Shown: positions 1 through 7,532 of the stretch, piece by piece
Position numbering within the stretch: position 1 is the stretch's first letter
How the letters are laid out: each line of letters starts with the position of its first letter
From: a virus
Taxonomy: Duplodnaviria > Heunggongvirae > Uroviricota > Caudoviricetes
IMG/VR virus record: IMGVR_UViG_2675903336_000001
Strand: one strand, 5' to 3'
DNA length: 7,532 nt
Position numbers and translations under genes: made by a program
The notes under the pieces: model-generated
Databases searched by the model: none
The model's input: the letters and a program-made list of their open reading frames with translations, nothing else
What the model was told of the DNA's origin: nothing

Positions 1-40
1 GCATTTGCTTTATCATGTAAAAGTCCTCTCTGCTCAGCAT
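1..40 (-). CDS. istA: IS21-family transposase IstA, N-terminal 13 codons (partial, continues past window edge)
   Basis: Reverse complement of 1..40 translates from ATG to MLSREDFYMIKQM, which matches the N-terminus of IS21-type IstA as I recall it. Too short for an independent statistical call. Confidence 0.65.
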   Translation of the reverse strand, partial: MLSREDFYMIKQM

Positions 41-141
41 GTTGATGTCCTTTCTGGTGTGAGAACCTTAAGGAAACAACATGTTGGGTGGAGCGGACAA
101 TCCAAATGGCGAATTACCGTCTTATATCACTGGCGCTGACA
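1..141 (-). mobile_element. IS21-family insertion sequence, left end only (rest lies beyond the window start)
   Basis: The minus strand carries a transposase start at 40..38 (see istA feature). A TGTCAG motif, which I recall as typical of IS21-family termini, sits at 141..136 on the minus strand, about 100 bp upstream of that start. Stf-like coding sequence ends abruptly at the same place. The exact boundary is an estimate. Confidence 0.6.
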
Positions 142-453
142 CTTCATCACCTCCGGACGTAAATCACCATCCTTTGGTGCATTCAGAAACGCGTTCAGTG
201 TCCCCGGTGCATCAGTCGGTGCCACATCAATATCCCCGACACGGGTTGGCTGCCAGCCGTTACAGTGAAGCGCAACCTCGTAATACCCCGGCTCAGCCTC
301 AATCACATAAGCACCGTTATTGTCCGTCACGCAAGTGGCAACAACGTGTGCCACAACGGTCGGACTGGTTCTTCTGGCCCGCAGTTCAATCGCACAATTT
401 ACGACAGGTTTACCCGCCCCATCTTTCAGTACACCTGAAATCTTTACTGCCAT
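127..453 (-). pseudogene. stf: Side tail fibre (Stf-like) N-terminal fragment, truncated by the IS21-family insertion
   Basis: ATG at 453..451 begins MAVKISGVLKDGAGKPV..., resembling the lambda Stf N-terminus (MAVKISGVLKDG...). The frame stays open only about 108 codons and reaches a stop at 129..127, inside the presumed IS end. Position after lom matches lambda order J-lom-stf. The ORF-track start at 495 is an upstream extension that overlaps the lom terminator. Confidence 0.6.
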
Positions 454-463
454 ATTCACCCCA

Positions 464-489
464 CAAAAAGCCCGCCTGAACCAGCGGGC
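464..489 (-). terminator. Putative rho-independent terminator downstream of lom
   Basis: Plus strand has gcccgc (470-475), an 8-nt loop, then gcgggc (484-489), preceded by aaaaa (465-469). On the minus strand this reads as a GC-rich 6-bp stem followed by TTTTT, 28 nt past the lom stop. Confidence 0.5.
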
Positions 490-516
490 AGTCATAACAC
501 TGTGTTACCTGGCTAA

Positions 517-1116
517 TCAGAACTTATAACCGACACCCACGATGAAACCGTCAGTGCGCCAGTCACCACTGCCGGAACCTTCATAAGCAAGGTCAATGGC
601 CACGGATTCGGTCGGGTTAAACTGCACGCCAGCCCCCCACGCCAGAGACGTGTTGCTGTGGCGACCGCCATCACTTCCGGTCAGCACATCGTGCGTTTTC
701 CCCTTGTTGTCAGTTACGCGGAGATAATCCCCGGAGAAGGTCGACACACGGCTGTAAGCCACGCCCGCCATCGCATACGCGCTGAACCATTCATTCACGC
801 GCACAGACGGCCCCGCCATCACGCTGAACCAGCGGTTACGCACGGAATCCTCATGCCAGCGGGTATCGCTGTAATGCGTTTTTTGCTCATCTTCAGCGTT
901 GGCATAACTGAATGACGTAATCAGCCCCAGCGTGTCCGTAAACTCATAACGGTATTTCACGTTAATGCCCTTCAGGTCATCGCTGCCTGGCATATCAGTA
1001 TGGGTCTGAAGATACCCGGCGCTCAGCGTGGACTGATGTTCAGACGCCCATGCAGGCGCACCGGATACGGCCAGACAGATGGCTGCGGACAAAATGGCTG
1101 CACAAACTTTACGCAT
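517..1116 (-). CDS. lom: Lom outer-membrane beta-barrel protein (Ail/Lom/OmpX/PagC family), prophage moron
   Basis: 199-aa ORF with a signal peptide (MRKVCAAILSAAICLAVSGAPAWA). C-terminus ...AYEGSGSGDWRTDGFIVGVGYKF matches the lambda Lom C-terminus, including the terminal aromatic residue typical of OMP barrels. SD-like GAGAGG lies 4-5 nt before the ATG at 1116. Confidence 0.9.
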   Translation of the reverse strand: MRKVCAAILSAAICLAVSGAPAWASEHQSTLSAGYLQTHTDMPGSDDLKGINVKYRYEFTDTLGLITSFSYANAEDEQKTHYSDTRWHEDSVRNRWFSVMAGPSVRVNEWFSAYAMAGVAYSRVSTFSGDYLRVTDNKGKTHDVLTGSDGGRHSNTSLAWGAGVQFNPTESVAIDLAYEGSGSGDWRTDGFIVGVGYKF

Positions 1117-1140
1117 AATTACCTCTCGCTTTTCTGCAAT

Positions 1141-1164
1141 AAAAAAGGCACCATTTCTGGTGCC
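1141..1164 (-). terminator. Putative rho-independent terminator between J and lom
   Basis: Plus strand has aaaaaa (1141-1146), ggcacc (1147-1152), a 6-nt loop, then ggtgcc (1159-1164). On the minus strand this is a 6-bp GC stem followed by TTTTTT, 20 nt past the stop of the J C-terminal ORF (1186..1184). Confidence 0.55.
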
Positions 1165-1183
1165 CGTATCTGGGTTATAAAAT

Positions 1184-4100
1184 TCAGCTAATCGTGATGC
1201 CTGCAGTGGCTTTCTTCATCACCACAACCAGCAAATCGCTGATACTTGCTGTGGGATACCAGCCATTTACCAGCCATGCCGATACAGAAAACTCCAGCGT
1301 CATGTGACCGTGACCGGCAGGCATATCAATAACACCCGTATATATCAGCGTATTATCCAGGGTCGTTCGGTTATAAATTTCAGCACCGTTTTTCTTCACT
1401 ATCAGGCGGCATGACGAATAAATATTGTTATTCTTCCGCTCATGTTTAGCACCGCGAAACGCCACCGCGGGAATAACAATTTGCCGATCAAACGGCTGAT
1501 CGTCATAAACCCTGACGGTAATGGTCCCTGATGGCCACCTCTCCGGTGCCCGGGAGTCCCGTGGGAAAGGTTTGCCCACTGTTTTAACGAGATCGCCTTC
1601 AATCTGGTTCGCGGACAATTTTCCCAGAACCCGACNNNNNNNNNNNNNNNNNNNNNNNNNNNNNNNNNNNNNNNNNNNNNNNNNNNNNNNNNNNNNNNNN
1701 NNNNNNNNNNNNNNNNNNNNNNNNNNNNNNNNNNNNNNNNNNNNNNNNNNNNNNNNNNNNNNNNNNNNNNNNNNNNNNNNNNNNNNNNNNNNNNNNNNNN
1801 NNNNNNNNNNNNNNNNNNNNNNNNNNNNNNNNNNNNNNNNNNNNNNNNNNNNNNNNNNNNNNNNNNNNNNNNNNNNNNNNNNNNNTCGCAGGATTAATCA
1901 TCGCAATCCTGTCTGCCGCCAGCAGCACCTGACTCTGCATTCCTGCTGGCGTATTCTCAATACCGGCACCGATACCCGCAATATAAAGGCGTCCGTCCTT
2001 CATCTGTTGCAGCTTCACAGCCCACATGCTGTTCAGGTTATTATTTGTATCAACCTGAACTTTCTGTATCTGCTGGATTGCAGCACTCTGATTTTCCAGT
2101 TTTTTATTGACGGTTTGCGTGATTTCATTGCTGACATTCGTAATGGACGTCCTGATTTCAGTCAGGTCCGGCGCAAGCTGACCGTTATCAATCTGCGTCC
2201 ACAACTCCTTGCCGAGATGCGTTTTATTGATCAACCCTTTATAAAAATTCAGATAACCTTCTGCATCATCGCTCGCCCGACCGATGGCCTCCACAAATGC
2301 CGATTTGCCAACGGTGTTCACACTGCGAACGTAAAAATAATAATCATGGCCCGGCCTGATATTGATACTGGCGGCTATCCAGTACAGCGCCGTGCCAAGA
2401 TAGCGGGCGCTGGTTTCAACCTGCCTGATATCCGCAATCCGCTTTTCCGAAAACCAGAACTCAAACTGCACCGTCGGGTCATATACAGCCAGTTTCGGGA
2501 CCGCCGTTATCTGAAAATACCCCGGTATCAGTTCAATAGTGACAGGCGCTGCCGGTGCCGCAATCCGGAACGATACCGACGCCGGATCGCCCTGCTGCCC
2601 CCGGGCATTTACCGCCCGGACTGTCAGACTGTAATTCCCCAGCGCCAGCTGCCTGAAGCGGTATGTGGTTTCCGTCGTCCTGGCTGTGCTGACCAGCCGC
2701 TCACTGCCGTCGTCCGCTGCCACGGTCAGGCGAAGCAGGAAGCTCACACCCTTCACCACCTTCGGCGTGTCCCATCGCGCCAGCACCTGATATTCCCCGC
2801 TGTCTGCGGTGACTTCGGCGGTCAGATGCTGCACCGCTGGCGGCGTGACACCATTCACCGTGCCGCGCCGGTCACCGTCAAAGTGTGCCCCGTTATCCAC
2901 GATGGCCTCTTTTTCCGGCACATGCTGCACGGCGGTGATGGCATACGTGCCGTCGTCGTTCTCACGGATACTCACGCAGCGGAACAGACGCTGGCGCAGC
3001 GTCGGCAGCTTCAGCCCCCACACGCTGTATTCTGCAACGCCGTCAGGAACCCGGCTCACTTTCACCTTCACGCCGTCGGTGACGGACTGGACCTCCACGC
3101 TGACCGGATTGCCACTTCCGTCAACCAGGCTTATCAGCGTGGTACCGGAGGACGGCAGCGTGATTTCACGGTCGAGCGTCAGCGTCCGGGTCTGGCTGTT
3201 CACCGCCAGTACGCGACCACCGGTGCTGATACCGGCATAATCATCATCGCAGATTTCAATGACATCACCCGGTACATGGCGAAGCCCTTCTGCGCCCACG
3301 CTGAAGTCCACGGTCTGCGTTTCCAGCAGTTCCGTTTTAATCAGCCACAGCCCGGCTCGGTGTGCCTGCCCCCGGCTGGTACAGCCAAAGGCATCCATCT
3401 TCGNNNNNNNNNNNNNNNNNNNNNNNNNNNNNNNNNNNNNNNNNNNNNNNNNNNNNNNNNNNNNNNNNNNNNNNNNNNNNNNNNNNNNNNNNNNNNNNNN
3501 NNNNNNNNNNNNNNNNNNNNNNNNNNNNNNNNNNNNNNNNNNNNNNNNNNNNNNNNNNNNNNNNNNNNNNNNNNNNNNNNNNNNNNNNNNNNNNNNNNNN
3601 NNNNNNNNNNNNNNNNNNNNNNNNNNNNNNNNNNNNNNNNNNNNNNNNNNNNNNNNCATACAGCGCATCGCCGAGCAGAAATCACTGAGAACATCCCACG
3701 CCTTACGCTGTGTGGTCAGGTAAGAGTTACAGGTGATGCGCGGCTCCGTGCCGCCAAATCCGTCCGTCACTGACTGGTCGCAGTACTGGCCGATGACATA
3801 CAGCGCCCATTTGTCCACATCTGCCGCACCAAGACGTTTCCCCATGCCGTAGCGCGGATGAGTGAGCATGTCCCACAGACACCAGGCCATGTTGTTGCTG
3901 TATGCTGGCTTAAGCGTTCCGTCCCAGATACCGCTGTATTGCCGCGTCTGCGGGTTATAGTTCGACGGCACCTGCAGAATGCGCCCGCGAAGATGATAAT
4001 TGCGACTCACCTGCTGGTTACCGAACTGCTCTGAATCCACCTGCACGCCGACCAGCGCCGTGTTCGGGTAGCACTGTTTCACATCGATGATTTCGGTGTA

Positions 4101-4703
4101 CGACGACCAGAGCGTTTTGTTCTGCAGCTGGTCTGTGGTGCTGTCCGGTGTCATCCTGCGCATCCGGATATTAAACGGGCGCGGCGGCAGGTTACCCACC
4201 ACCACCGAGGCCAGATACTGCGAAGTGGTTTTGCCCTTAATGGTGATGTCTTTTTCCGTCACCCAGCCACCGTTACGCTGTATCTGAACCAGCAGGCGGA
4301 CTTCCGACGGATTCCGGTCACCCTTTGAGGTGGTTTCCACCAGTGCCTGCACACCGAAGGTCAGGCGCAGACGGTCGATGTTTGCCGACGTGATGGTCCG
4401 GGTGATCGGCGTGTCATATTTCACTTCCGTACCCAGCACCGTCTCGGAGCCGGAGGATTCAAAACCCTCCGGCGGTGTCTGCTCCTGCTCACCTGCACGG
4501 AACACCACCGTAACACCGGAAAAGTTTGTCTTCCCCTCGCTGTCCAGGACCGGCGTACCGTTCAGCAGCACGCTTTTTAATCCATCCACCGGACCGTCAA
4601 CCGGCCCTTCGCTGATGGCATCAATCACACTCAGCAACTGCGTGGATTTCAGGTTGTCCTTCGCTTCGCGCGGGGTATGCCCCTTACTGCTGCCTTTACC
4701 CAT
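1184..4703 (-). CDS. J: Tail tip / host specificity protein J (central tail fibre); interrupted by two N-masked blocks, with a frame change across the first
   Basis: ATG at 4703..4701 begins [34 protein letters not shown]..., closely matching the lambda gpJ N-terminus. The frame is collinear through the 3404-3656 mask (...FCSAMRCM / [22 protein letters not shown]...). The body frame runs to ...[11 protein letters not shown] at 1887. The C-terminal domain (...[21 protein letters not shown]...[13 protein letters not shown]...[14 protein letters not shown], stop at 1184) matches the lambda gpJ receptor-binding C-terminus but lies in a different frame. The ORF-track stop at 1599 is a short read-on in the body frame after the mask. 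Confidence 0.85.
1636..1885. other. Masked or unsequenced block (250 N) inside J
   Basis: Run of n characters; no sequence information. Would correspond to the J region between the fibronectin-like body and the receptor-binding domain. Confidence 1.
3404..3656. other. Masked or unsequenced block (253 N) inside J
   Basis: Run of n characters. The J frame is preserved across it, so about 84 codons are hidden. Confidence 1.
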
Positions 4704-4763
4704 TCCTCACGCTCCATAAACGACAAAACCGCCCGCAGGCGGTTTCACATAAAACATTTTGCA

Positions 4764-5405
4764 TCAGCGACCAATCACCACAACCTGACCACCATCCCCT
4801 TCGTCTGCCGTGCTGATCTCCTGAGAAACCACACGTGACCCCACGCGCATTTCACCGTACAGAACGGGCAGAACATTGCCCTGGGCAACCATGTTATCCA
4901 GTGACGAGAAATACGTGTTCTGCTTACCGTTATCCGTTGTCTGTGTACGGGGAGTTCTGGCTTTCGGTGCCAGCATCTGTGCAACACCGCCAAGCGTCAT
5001 ACTGGCACCGAGAGAAAACAGCAGATTACTCGCCATAATTCCTACCCCCGGCATCCATATAGCAACCGCCATAACAGCCGCCCCCAGCACCGCCTGAAAC
5101 ACACCGCCACTTTTAGCTCCCACCAGACGCGGTACTATGTGGATCACTGCACCATTTGCCAGCGGCTCATTAAGACGGGCAGACAATTCGGTTTCACCTG
5201 CATCACGCCCGGCAATGCGCACCTGATACCAGCCGTCACTCAGTTTCTGACGAAACGCCGGGAGCTGTGTGGCCAGTGCCCGGATGGCTTCAGCCCCCGT
5301 TTTCACACGAAGGTCGATGCGGCGACCAAATCGTTGTAAATCCCCGTAAAGGCAGATGCGCGCCATGCCCGGTGACGCCAGAGGGAGTGTGTGCGTCGCT
5401 GCCAT
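4764..5405 (-). CDS. I: Tail tip assembly protein I (ubiquitin-like N-terminal domain)
   Basis: 213-aa ORF beginning MAATHTLPLASPGMARICLYGDLQRFGRRIDLRVKTGAEAIRALATQLP... and ending ...VSQEISTADEGDGGQVVVIGR, matching lambda gpI as I recall it. The ATG at 5405 overlaps the 3' end of K by 103 nt in another frame. A GTG at 5306..5304 overlapping the K stop (GTGA) is an alternative start. Confidence 0.85.
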   Translation of the reverse strand: MAATHTLPLASPGMARICLYGDLQRFGRRIDLRVKTGAEAIRALATQLPAFRQKLSDGWYQVRIAGRDAGETELSARLNEPLANGAVIHIVPRLVGAKSGGVFQAVLGAAVMAVAIWMPGVGIMASNLLFSLGASMTLGGVAQMLAPKARTPRTQTTDNGKQNTYFSSLDNMVAQGNVLPVLYGEMRVGSRVVSQEISTADEGDGGQVVVIGR

Positions 5406-6046
5406 TTGTCGGTGTACCTCTCTCGTTTGCTCAGTTGTTCAGGAATATGGTGCAGCAGCCCGCCGTCACCGCAGTAAATGGCGGCATGATTCGGCACCGA
5501 TGAACCAAAACAGCACAGCAGCACATCGCCCGGCTGTGCCTCTGTCAGTGCGACACGGTAAAAACCCGTCACCTCCATATTGTCAAGATAGAGATTCTGA
5601 CCGTTACGCCACCAGTCATCCCCGCGATGAAAATCCGGCATCTCAATCCCTGCCAGATGATAAGCATCCCGGAACAGCGTGTAACAGTCCGTCACCCCGT
5701 GCTCAAAGCGCCGCCCGGTGAGATGCGGCACACAGCGGAACTTGTGAATCGCCCCCCGGCAGACCAGCCACCACGGCAAATCACTCTGCACCTGCAGCCG
5801 CCGGTCAGCCTCACTCAGCCAGGGCAGACCACCGGGATGACTGTGGACCAGCGCCACAATCTCACCCTGCATTTGTGCCCGCAGCCAGTCCTCCGGAGCC
5901 ATCCGGAACCGTTCCTCCGGCTCACCGGAGATATTCTCGCTGGGAAGATACCTGTCTCCCTCCGGCGTTCTTACCACGAAGCCACACGACTCCGCTGGCG
6001 CACATCGCCGGGCGTGCGCCAGAATCGCTGATTCTGTCTGTGTCAT
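5303..6046 (-). CDS. K: Tail tip assembly protein K (JAMM/MPN metallopeptidase plus NlpC/P60-like domain)
   Basis: ATG at 6046..6044 begins MTQTESAILAHARRCAPAESCGFVV..., 5 nt after the L stop. JAMM-type motif HSHPGGLPWLSEAD (HxH-x7-S-x2-D) is encoded at about 5845..5804. The C-terminal half has Cys and His residues (GVTDCYTLF ... NHAAIYCGDG) consistent with an NlpC/P60 fold. The ORF-track version (5303..6310) is an upstream extension into L. Confidence 0.85.
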   Translation of the reverse strand: MTQTESAILAHARRCAPAESCGFVVRTPEGDRYLPSENISGEPEERFRMAPEDWLRAQMQGEIVALVHSHPGGLPWLSEADRRLQVQSDLPWWLVCRGAIHKFRCVPHLTGRRFEHGVTDCYTLFRDAYHLAGIEMPDFHRGDDWWRNGQNLYLDNMEVTGFYRVALTEAQPGDVLLCCFGSSVPNHAAIYCGDGGLLHHIPEQLSKRERYTDKWQRRTHSLWRHRAWRASAFTGIYNDLVAASTFV

Positions 6047-6050
6047 GGAT

Positions 6051-6749
6051 TTACTGAGAAAGTTTATTGATGGAAAGGAAACCGCCGAAATTACCGGTAT
6101 TGTTGCGCAACTCACACCCGCGCATACACTTGCTGCATTTGTCCTTCCGGATATCCGTCGTTGGTTTGTCGAACTCGTCAGCCACTGCCCTGCCCGTGTA
6201 ACCACACTCATCAGAACGGTAAGTCCACATACAGGTATTCGCCAGCATGATACGCCCCGGGAAAACCGCGCCATCCGTCTCCGTTGGTGTGGCCAGCACA
6301 AAAGAGGCACTGACCGCGCTCAGTTCGCTGCACTGCTCGATGCGCCAGCGGCTGATCACCTCCTGTTCCGGATCGGCGTCGCTGTTTCCGTTGACGAAGT
6401 TCACCGCATCCAGAAAACGGGCGTAAACCTTACGCCTGACCACCGTTCCGCCGACCAGACTCTGCAGGTCTTCCGCCATCCCGGTGACCATTCCGTGCAG
6501 GTTAGAAACCGTCAGTGTCGGACGGGCAGCACTGCCCTTGCCGTTCAGTTCAAATCCCGTCCCCTGAATGGGGTATGCCTGATACTGCCGCCCCTGCCAG
6601 GTAACCGGCTCACCTTTTTCGTTCTGCTCATTACAGAAAAAATAACGTTCACCACCGACCTCTGTCAGATCGATTTCCCAGAGCACCACCTGGGCTGACT
6701 GAGTGAGGCGTGTCGTCTCATGATGTGTTTCCTGTGGAATATCCTGCAT
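6051..6749 (-). CDS. L: Minor tail protein L (tail tip complex; C-terminal cysteine cluster)
   Basis: 232-aa ORF, MQDIPQETHHETTRLTQSAQVVLWEIDLTEV..., same length as lambda gpL. Strong SD GGAGG lies 5 nt before the ATG at 6749. C-terminal Cys-rich segment (CMWTYRSDECGY...DKCSKCMRGC). Confidence 0.9.
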   Translation of the reverse strand: MQDIPQETHHETTRLTQSAQVVLWEIDLTEVGGERYFFCNEQNEKGEPVTWQGRQYQAYPIQGTGFELNGKGSAARPTLTVSNLHGMVTGMAEDLQSLVGGTVVRRKVYARFLDAVNFVNGNSDADPEQEVISRWRIEQCSELSAVSASFVLATPTETDGAVFPGRIMLANTCMWTYRSDECGYTGRAVADEFDKPTTDIRKDKCSKCMRGCELRNNTGNFGGFLSINKLSQ

Positions 6750-6758
6750 CAGAGCCTC

Positions 6759-7088
6759 CTATGCCACGACCTGTTCAAAATCTGCCGTTATGGTTACCCA
6801 CAACGCCCCCACGCTTGCCGACCATTTACGACAAACCACCCTGATCGGCTTCCAGTCATAAGGTGGCGTCCACTGAAATGCGCGGACGCCACCGTGCCGT
6901 TCCAGAAAGGCTTTTAAAAATGGGTGTTCACCTTTACGAACACGTATCTTCACGCTGTAAGTCGACAACTGGTTATTCAGTCCCGCCGCACGACGCTGTT
7001 CATAACCATCGCCCAGCTTCACTGTCACCACTTTCGGCTCTGATACCACATTCATATCCGGGCGCACTTTCCAGTGAAACGTCTCCAT
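6759..7088 (-). CDS. M: Minor tail protein M
   Basis: 109-aa ORF, METFHWKVRPDMNVVSEPKVVTVKLGDGYEQRRAAGLN..., same length and start as lambda gpM. Its ATG (7088..7086) overlaps the H stop TAA (7090..7088) as TAATG, implying translational coupling. Confidence 0.9.
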   Translation of the reverse strand: METFHWKVRPDMNVVSEPKVVTVKLGDGYEQRRAAGLNNQLSTYSVKIRVRKGEHPFLKAFLERHGGVRAFQWTPPYDWKPIRVVCRKWSASVGALWVTITADFEQVVA

Positions 7089-7427
7089 TACCGGTATGCT
7101 CCACTTAACCGGCCACCATCACGGGCCTGCTGTTGCATAAAGTCCGCGGCCGCTTTTTTCCCGAGGTCATAAACCACCTTCAGGGCAGCCGGACCTATCT
7201 GCCCGTTCGTGCCATCGTTATTGATCTCAATGTTGTACTGCGGGGCAAACATCACCATGCCTGAACCACCAGTATCCGCCACACCCCCCAGCTTACCATC
7301 AGCACCGCGACGCAGTGGCAGAATGGCTTCAGGTCCCGCTTCCCCCATCACACCCGCGCCTTTTGCAAAAGCAAAAAACGTCGGACGGTTAACCACCGTG
7401 CCACTGTAGCGACTCAAATCAGCAGAC
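7088..7427 (-). pseudogene. H: Tail tape measure protein H, C-terminal fragment (5' part removed by IS insertion)
   Basis: Open frame ending ...EAGPEAILPLRRGADGKLGGVADTGGSGMVMFAPQYNIEINNDGTNGQIGPAALKVVYDLGKKAAADFMQQQARDGGRLSGAYR, with stop overlapping the M start. Position and synteny (H-M-L-K-I-J) match lambda. Upstream of about 7427 the frame runs into IS sequence, so the ORF-track start at 7453 is not native. Confidence 0.75.
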
Positions 7428-7532
7428 TGAGGTAGCCTGAGTTTAACGGACACTCCTTCCTGAAATAGAATGGCATCAGAAGGAGCTAATAATGAGCAGA
7501 AAAACCCAACGTTACTCTAAAGAGTTCAAAGC
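7428..7532 (+). mobile_element. IS3-family insertion sequence (IS600-like), left end, continues past the window
   Basis: Begins TGAGGTAGCCTGAGTTTAACGG... at 7428 (IS3-family ends typically start with TG). It contains an SD AGGAG and the orfA start at 7492. The end position is an estimate. Confidence 0.65.
7492..7532 (+). CDS. IS3-family transposase OrfA, N-terminal 13 codons (partial)
   Basis: ATG at 7492 is preceded by AGGAGctaata and translates to MSRKTQRYSKEFK, which matches the start of IS600-type OrfA as I recall it. Confidence 0.65.
   Translation, partial: MSRKTQRYSKEFK

Follow-up and report, generated by a model that had tools for sequence, protein, structure and literature searches.

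The tip attachment and host-specificity protein of phage lambda, gpJ, consists of 1132 aa, and its structures are available in the PDB (8iyk, 8xcj and others). It is composed of hub domains, two FNIII domains, a helical shaft (residues 809-861), a beta-prism central fibre and a receptor-binding domain (PMC11101478). In the lambda genome the neighbours of J are arranged in the order M-L-K-I-J-lom-stf. Another solved structure is that of 'A8 gpJ 713', a C-terminal fragment (PDB 9wca and 9wcb); among solved structures it matched the receptor-binding end of the J protein described here best. In draft (WGS) bacterial assemblies, leaving scaffold gaps of estimated size is a described practice (PMC5320598).

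We analyzed a stretch of 7,532 nt, called here the window, and all coordinates given below refer to it unless stated otherwise. It contains a gene J of lambda type on the minus strand (1184-4703, 3520 positions including 503 N). The initial annotation of this DNA had noted that the two parts of J lie in different frames on both sides of a block of N. It proposed that J is a frameshifted pseudogene linked to IS damage, or else that the length of the N block is not exact. Our results make it very probable that the frame break is an assembly artefact of a scaffold gap of estimated length within a known gene, and not a mutation.

Results

We read the window directly and translated its minus strand. 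The first N-run occupies exactly positions 1636-1885 (250 N) and the second, also located inside J, occupies positions 3404-3656 (253 N); the initial annotation of the frame break had made no mention of the latter. The frame of the J body starts with the ATG at 4703 and runs to the residues AMINPA; its last complete codon ends at 1887. Past the first N-run this frame gives 11 more residues and then a stop (1599-1601, minus strand), so that the ORF ends at 1599. The C-terminal frame reads without interruption from 1633 down to the stop codon at 1186-1184; it differs from the body frame and has a stop triplet at 1900-1898, above the N-run. There are 253 nt from 1886 to 1634, which is indivisible by 3, and the flanks are therefore out of frame as deposited. 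In this way all of the coordinates and readings of the initial annotation (the 250-N block, 1887, 1633, 1184, 1599, 1900-1898 and the 253 nt) were reproduced. A gap of estimated length will put its flanks out of frame in two thirds of cases, and the observed break is not beyond chance. Mechanical lists of ORFs gave very long ORFs running across the Ns, namely 1521-3773 on the plus strand (750 aa) and 1599-4703 on the minus strand (1034 aa with X). ORFs of this type are artefacts, because N is translated as X. Neither this 1034-aa ORF nor the product read from the edge of the first N-run (1184-1633) had a counterpart on record.

The window is the exact reverse complement of the whole public record CWTK01000175.1 (7532 bp, assembly GCA_001252215.1), with both N-runs included. 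Since the window is an entire draft WGS contig, the Ns are part of the deposit; they are neither biology nor the result of later masking. The gene list of this record is empty between 2769 and 5915 (coordinates of the record), after which there is a 144-aa product with a match to PF12421 only (5915-6349). No J was called between the end of gene I and this fragment, and calling resumes where a start codon first occurs beyond the Ns. As J was skipped in the gene list, the Ns must have been present already when the genes were called. In the window the 144-aa ORF corresponds to 1184-1618 (minus strand, TTG start at 1618), and it has been called as a gene on only two public contigs, one of which is CWTK01000175.1. 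This 144-residue public 'protein' is an artefactual fragment of the J tail, called because of the gap.

The Lom protein of the window (517-1116) occurs in exactly the same form on many contigs, and through it we fetched ten loci from finished chromosomes (L002-L011). These loci cover positions 1-7156 of the window. All ten were 100% identical to the window at 1-1635 and 1886-3403. At 3657-7156 the identity was 100% in 6-8 of the 10 loci, and in the others there was one difference per locus, which was a mismatch (up to four loci) or, in L010, a gap. In all ten loci 219 nt stood in place of the 250 N, and 244 nt in place of the 253 N. Further, the hidden 219-nt and 244-nt sequences were the same in each of them; in L003 the 219 nt occupy 5263-5481. 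At least two of the ten matching loci come from Shigella sonnei. CP019689 is the chromosome of S. sonnei 75/02 (PMC5447701), and CP022455 is a PacBio chromosome, taken as the reference for the Shigella cluster when outbreak clusters of S. sonnei were studied (PMC8627651).

The first N-run is thus 31 positions too long (250 N versus 219 real bases) and the second is 9 positions too long (253 N versus 244 real bases). The second gap keeps the frame by luck, because its excess is 9 nt, while the excess of 31 nt in the first gap breaks it. Since the second gap is also wrong in length, the lengths of the N-runs in CWTK01000175.1 are not true lengths. With the real bases in place, base 1886, the 219 nt and bases 1635-1634 together give 222 nt, which is 74 codons, and therefore the body and the C-terminal segment share one frame. 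The gap-filled window has 7492 nt and contains one J ORF of 3480 nt (1159 aa), the product of which is identical to the J protein of L003. The stops at 1599-1601 and 1898-1900 are spurious, as they no longer fall in frame when the true 219 nt replace the Ns, and there is no premature stop in the authentic frame. The real bases of the window can all be aligned with intact J genes without any indel, and the sole difference in length lies within the N-runs, which is not the picture of a pseudogene.

These results decide between the two readings offered by the initial annotation in favour of the second one. The Ns belong to a deposited draft, and the 219 nt found in ten finished loci join the frames; the length of the N block was indeed inexact. 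The initial annotation had also stated that its frame break would fall if a resolved sequence placed both segments in one continuous frame, and finished genomes with matching flanks provide such a sequence. The check that it proposed was for one continuous ORF of about 1170 aa. The ORF in the finished genomes is continuous, and its length is 1159 aa.

We compared J in 20 copies of the locus, ten obtained through Lom (L002-L011) and ten through gpM (L018-L027). One continuous J ORF was present in 19 of the 20 copies (the window itself holds 503 N in this place). In these 19 copies J was intact, with 3480 nt and 0-1 nt differences, and the view that J is a frameshifted pseudogene tied to IS damage was not upheld. 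J was also intact, with the same gap lengths, in a close E. coli relative (approximately 99% identical) and in one S. flexneri chromosome. In spread samples of E. coli, which ranged from approximately 100% to 88% identity, the matches spanning the first gap had 219 nt in 41 of 42 cases and 221 nt in one. The second gap was spanned by 244 nt in all matches but one, which was 2 nt longer. Lengths of 250 or 253 nt were not found at the gaps among the spanning matches of these E. coli samples. The 219-nt stretch was covered in at least 80% by 4346 records and the 244-nt stretch by more than 4300; among the top matches listed, the full-length ones spanned exactly 219 nt and exactly 244 nt, respectively. 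A scan of genome contigs with a 52-nt flank detected only relatives in S. flexneri, E. albertii and E. coli at 93-99% identity.

A broken J was seen in two other records. In L016 (AFGW01000025.1, 4957-8435) J is 98.6% identical and split into 976 + 144 aa. One T is missing there from a run of four T at J nt 2923, within the 219-nt stretch that is hidden in the window, and genes I and lom of this record are likewise split at homopolymer runs. The breaks in L016 are likely to come from sequencing error, though real decay is also possible. In L023 (JBDZZZ010000011.1, S. sonnei-type, 12386-15866) an additional G at J nt 1322 divides J into parts of 452 and 726 aa, and lom is split too. Because in both records a neighbour (I or lom) is also broken at homopolymers, sequencing error fits them better than decay.

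We searched the J protein of L003, which equals the gap-filled J, against Pfam. Six families were found, namely FNIII-A_GpJ, Phage-tail_3, Ig_J, Ig_J_second, Phage_Tail_Tip and Ig_GpJ_C, all far above the cut-offs and in the set and order of TipJ/gpJ. The protein is collinear with lambda gpJ from end to end and shares 947 of its 1159 residues with it (82%), and PDB structures of lambda gpJ match the completed J with E = 0. This J shares the domain order with lambda gpJ. It differs from it in being 27 residues longer, owing to an insertion at approximately 836-864 in the region of the helical shaft. The 29 gap positions of the alignment lie there, except for a gap of a single residue within the final 20. 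In the window the gene is written as three segments. The N-terminal one (3657-4703, minus strand) starts with the ATG at 4703. It is followed by the second gap (3404-3656), where the 253 N stand for 244 bases (J nt 1048-1291, residues approximately 350-431, in the Phage-tail_3 hub). The middle segment (1886-3403, minus strand) extends from the last part of the hub through two Ig/FNIII domains and the helical shaft into the first part of the central fibre, and these 1518 nt are those that were 100% identical to L002-L011. The first gap (1636-1885) has 250 N for 219 bases (J nt 2810-3028, residues approximately 937-1010). The hidden 74 codons show no alignment gap against lambda gpJ. Judged by position, they correspond to lambda residues of approximately 909-983, which is the central fibre. 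The beta-prism central fibre joins the helical shaft to the receptor-binding domain, and most of it would be encoded by the hidden 219 nt.

The C-terminal segment (1184-1633, minus strand, stop at 1186-1184) holds the end of the central fibre and the Ig-like receptor-binding domain. The initial annotation had recognized it as the receptor-binding end of gpJ, and this was borne out by a match to PF12421 (Ig_GpJ_C, E = 7e-38) and by its alignment to lambda gpJ 985-1131 (E = 7e-28 to 1.5e-28). The segment aligned better to 'A8 gpJ 713' of PDB 9wca (E = 7e-50). The two proteins share the terminus (A/S)TAGI(T/S)IS, and they differ by many substitutions and by two indels, of 4 and 5 residues, within the domain. 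Compared with lambda gpJ, this J has diverged far more in its last approximately 150 residues than elsewhere, so its receptor need not be LamB. The receptor-binding domain is closer in sequence to 9wca than to the LamB-binding domain of lambda, which hints that the receptor specificity may be other than that of lambda.

The gene order in the source record and in the 20 related loci, based on gene lists and Pfam, was M-L-K-I-J-lom-stf as in lambda. The gene lom (517-1116, minus strand) encodes an Ail/Lom outer-membrane beta-barrel protein of 199 aa (PF06316, E = 4e-129) and lies directly downstream of J, as it does in lambda. In the ten loci from finished chromosomes the exact Lom protein of the window adjoins an intact J. 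Next to lom there is an N-terminal fragment of the side tail fibre (127-495, minus strand, 122 aa), which matches 104 of the 134 profile positions of PF08400 (phage_tail_N) and forms the truncated end of the remnant. In the finished genomes IS transposase genes are present on both sides of the remnant, and the right end of the window (7454-7532) enters the start of an IS transposase gene. In the loci obtained through gpM (L018-L027) we inspected the 10 kb upstream of window position 7532. This region contains an antiterminator-Q-like gene, IS elements, a short ORF of 121-127 aa directly upstream of M that has no Pfam match, and M itself. M is followed by L-K-I-J-lom, the truncated stf and further IS elements. 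No lysis, head or tail-tube genes were found between Q and M in L018-L027. We conclude that J is an intact ORF within a defective prophage remnant known in Shigella sonnei-type genomes; in this respect the locus differs from lambda, where J belongs to a phage.

Two further observations concern the neighbourhood. In CP019689.1 (S. sonnei 75/02, L007 and L008) the M-L-K-I-J-lom remnant is present twice, approximately 9.4 kb apart and with an IS element between the copies. This arrangement resembles a tandem duplication of the tail-tip module bounded by IS elements. A terminator-like hairpin with a T tail is located just past the J stop (1146-1165, minus strand; GGGCACC-AGAAAT-GGTGCCT followed by TTTTT), and a second one is found near the start of the truncated stf (470-489, minus strand). 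A promoter and terminator scan of positions 1-1400 gave no more sites than shuffled sequence.

Discussion

The window is an entire draft contig, most probably scaffolded, of a Shigella sonnei-type genome. We propose that a short-read assembler broke twice within J, and that a scaffolder bridged both breaks with N-runs, the lengths of which (250 and 253) would have been estimated from read pairs. CWTK01000175.1 presumably came from an assembly pipeline of this kind. With the true 219 nt in place, the parts that were read as a body and a receptor-binding C-terminus would form one ORF of 1159 codons. We infer, by comparison of the flanking sequence, that this particular isolate carries the same hidden bases as the finished genomes. 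The gaps resemble ordinary scaffold gaps of estimated size, and we found no feature in which they differ. The N-runs stand within a WGS contig, their flanks are collinear with finished genomes and 100% identical to them up to the edges of the Ns, their lengths contradict the resolved sequence by tens of bases (+31 and +9), and they fall in a prophage gene that often has several copies per E. coli genome.

The assembler probably failed where segments of J are repeated among the prophages of one genome. J-like sequence was found in a median of 2 places per E. coli genome, and in up to 11-15, and the hidden stretches were found in a median of 2 places and in up to 11-13. The second hidden stretch was 95-99% identical in 4350 of 4460 records. 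Breaks of the assembly are plausible here, because repeats such as multi-copy J disrupt short-read assemblies. Histograms of the longest contig for the collection blocks that bear Lom or gpM contained several hundred blocks in which this contig was only 2-5 kb long; this corresponds approximately to the spacing between the second gap and either end of the remnant. All ten places returned for gpM belonged to the same locus, with no second prophage among them.

Could the isolate nevertheless carry a damaged J? A small indel may be present inside the gap, for example in the runs of four T or five A that occur in the hidden 219 nt, whatever the number of Ns, and this would make J a true frameshifted pseudogene. 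The locus is an IS-flanked defective remnant in which selection on J may be relaxed, and J is broken in two other records, in one of them within this very stretch (L016, J nt 2923) and in the other elsewhere (L023, J nt 1322). However, the sole argument for a pseudogene that came from the window was the N count, which proved unreliable, and 19 of 20 copies are intact with at most one base different over 3480 nt. The two broken records are better explained by sequencing error, as their neighbouring genes are also broken at homopolymers. We therefore regard a true pseudogene as very improbable. It is even less credible that the N-runs are exact in length and that the isolate has 250 and 253 nt in these places, that is, private insertions of 31 and 9 nt, the first of which disrupts J. 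The record as written does give these numbers, but two independent insertions would be needed exactly inside the N-runs, while the remaining approximately 6650 bases are identical to finished genomes. Moreover, neither length was present in any sampled J of E. coli or Shigella, lambda has the same 74 codons, and the gene calls of the source record show that the Ns preceded gene calling.

Taken together, it is very improbable that this isolate alone has a genuine frameshift, or 31 additional nt, in the part of J that encodes the central fibre, which would make J a pseudogene in an otherwise perfectly conserved remnant. Programmed ribosomal frameshifting that would join the frames in vivo, as it does in G/GT of lambda, has a negligible probability; the apparent change of frame is all that speaks for it, whereas J is in a single frame in the finished genomes and in lambda, and there is nothing to recode. 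We dropped this explanation, since the ORF is continuous in finished genomes whose flanks are identical.

We thus return to a scaffold gap of estimated length as the cause of the frame break. The gap had side effects in public data: a public collection contains an artefactual 'protein' of 144 residues because of it, and J is missing from the gene list of the record. N-runs inside draft WGS contigs are estimates of size, and reading frames are not transferable across them; about two thirds of such gaps inside a gene will mimic a frameshift. The significance of these results is one of caution only. The gene itself is an ordinary, well-known J of lambda type, and its apparent frameshift is not a real feature.
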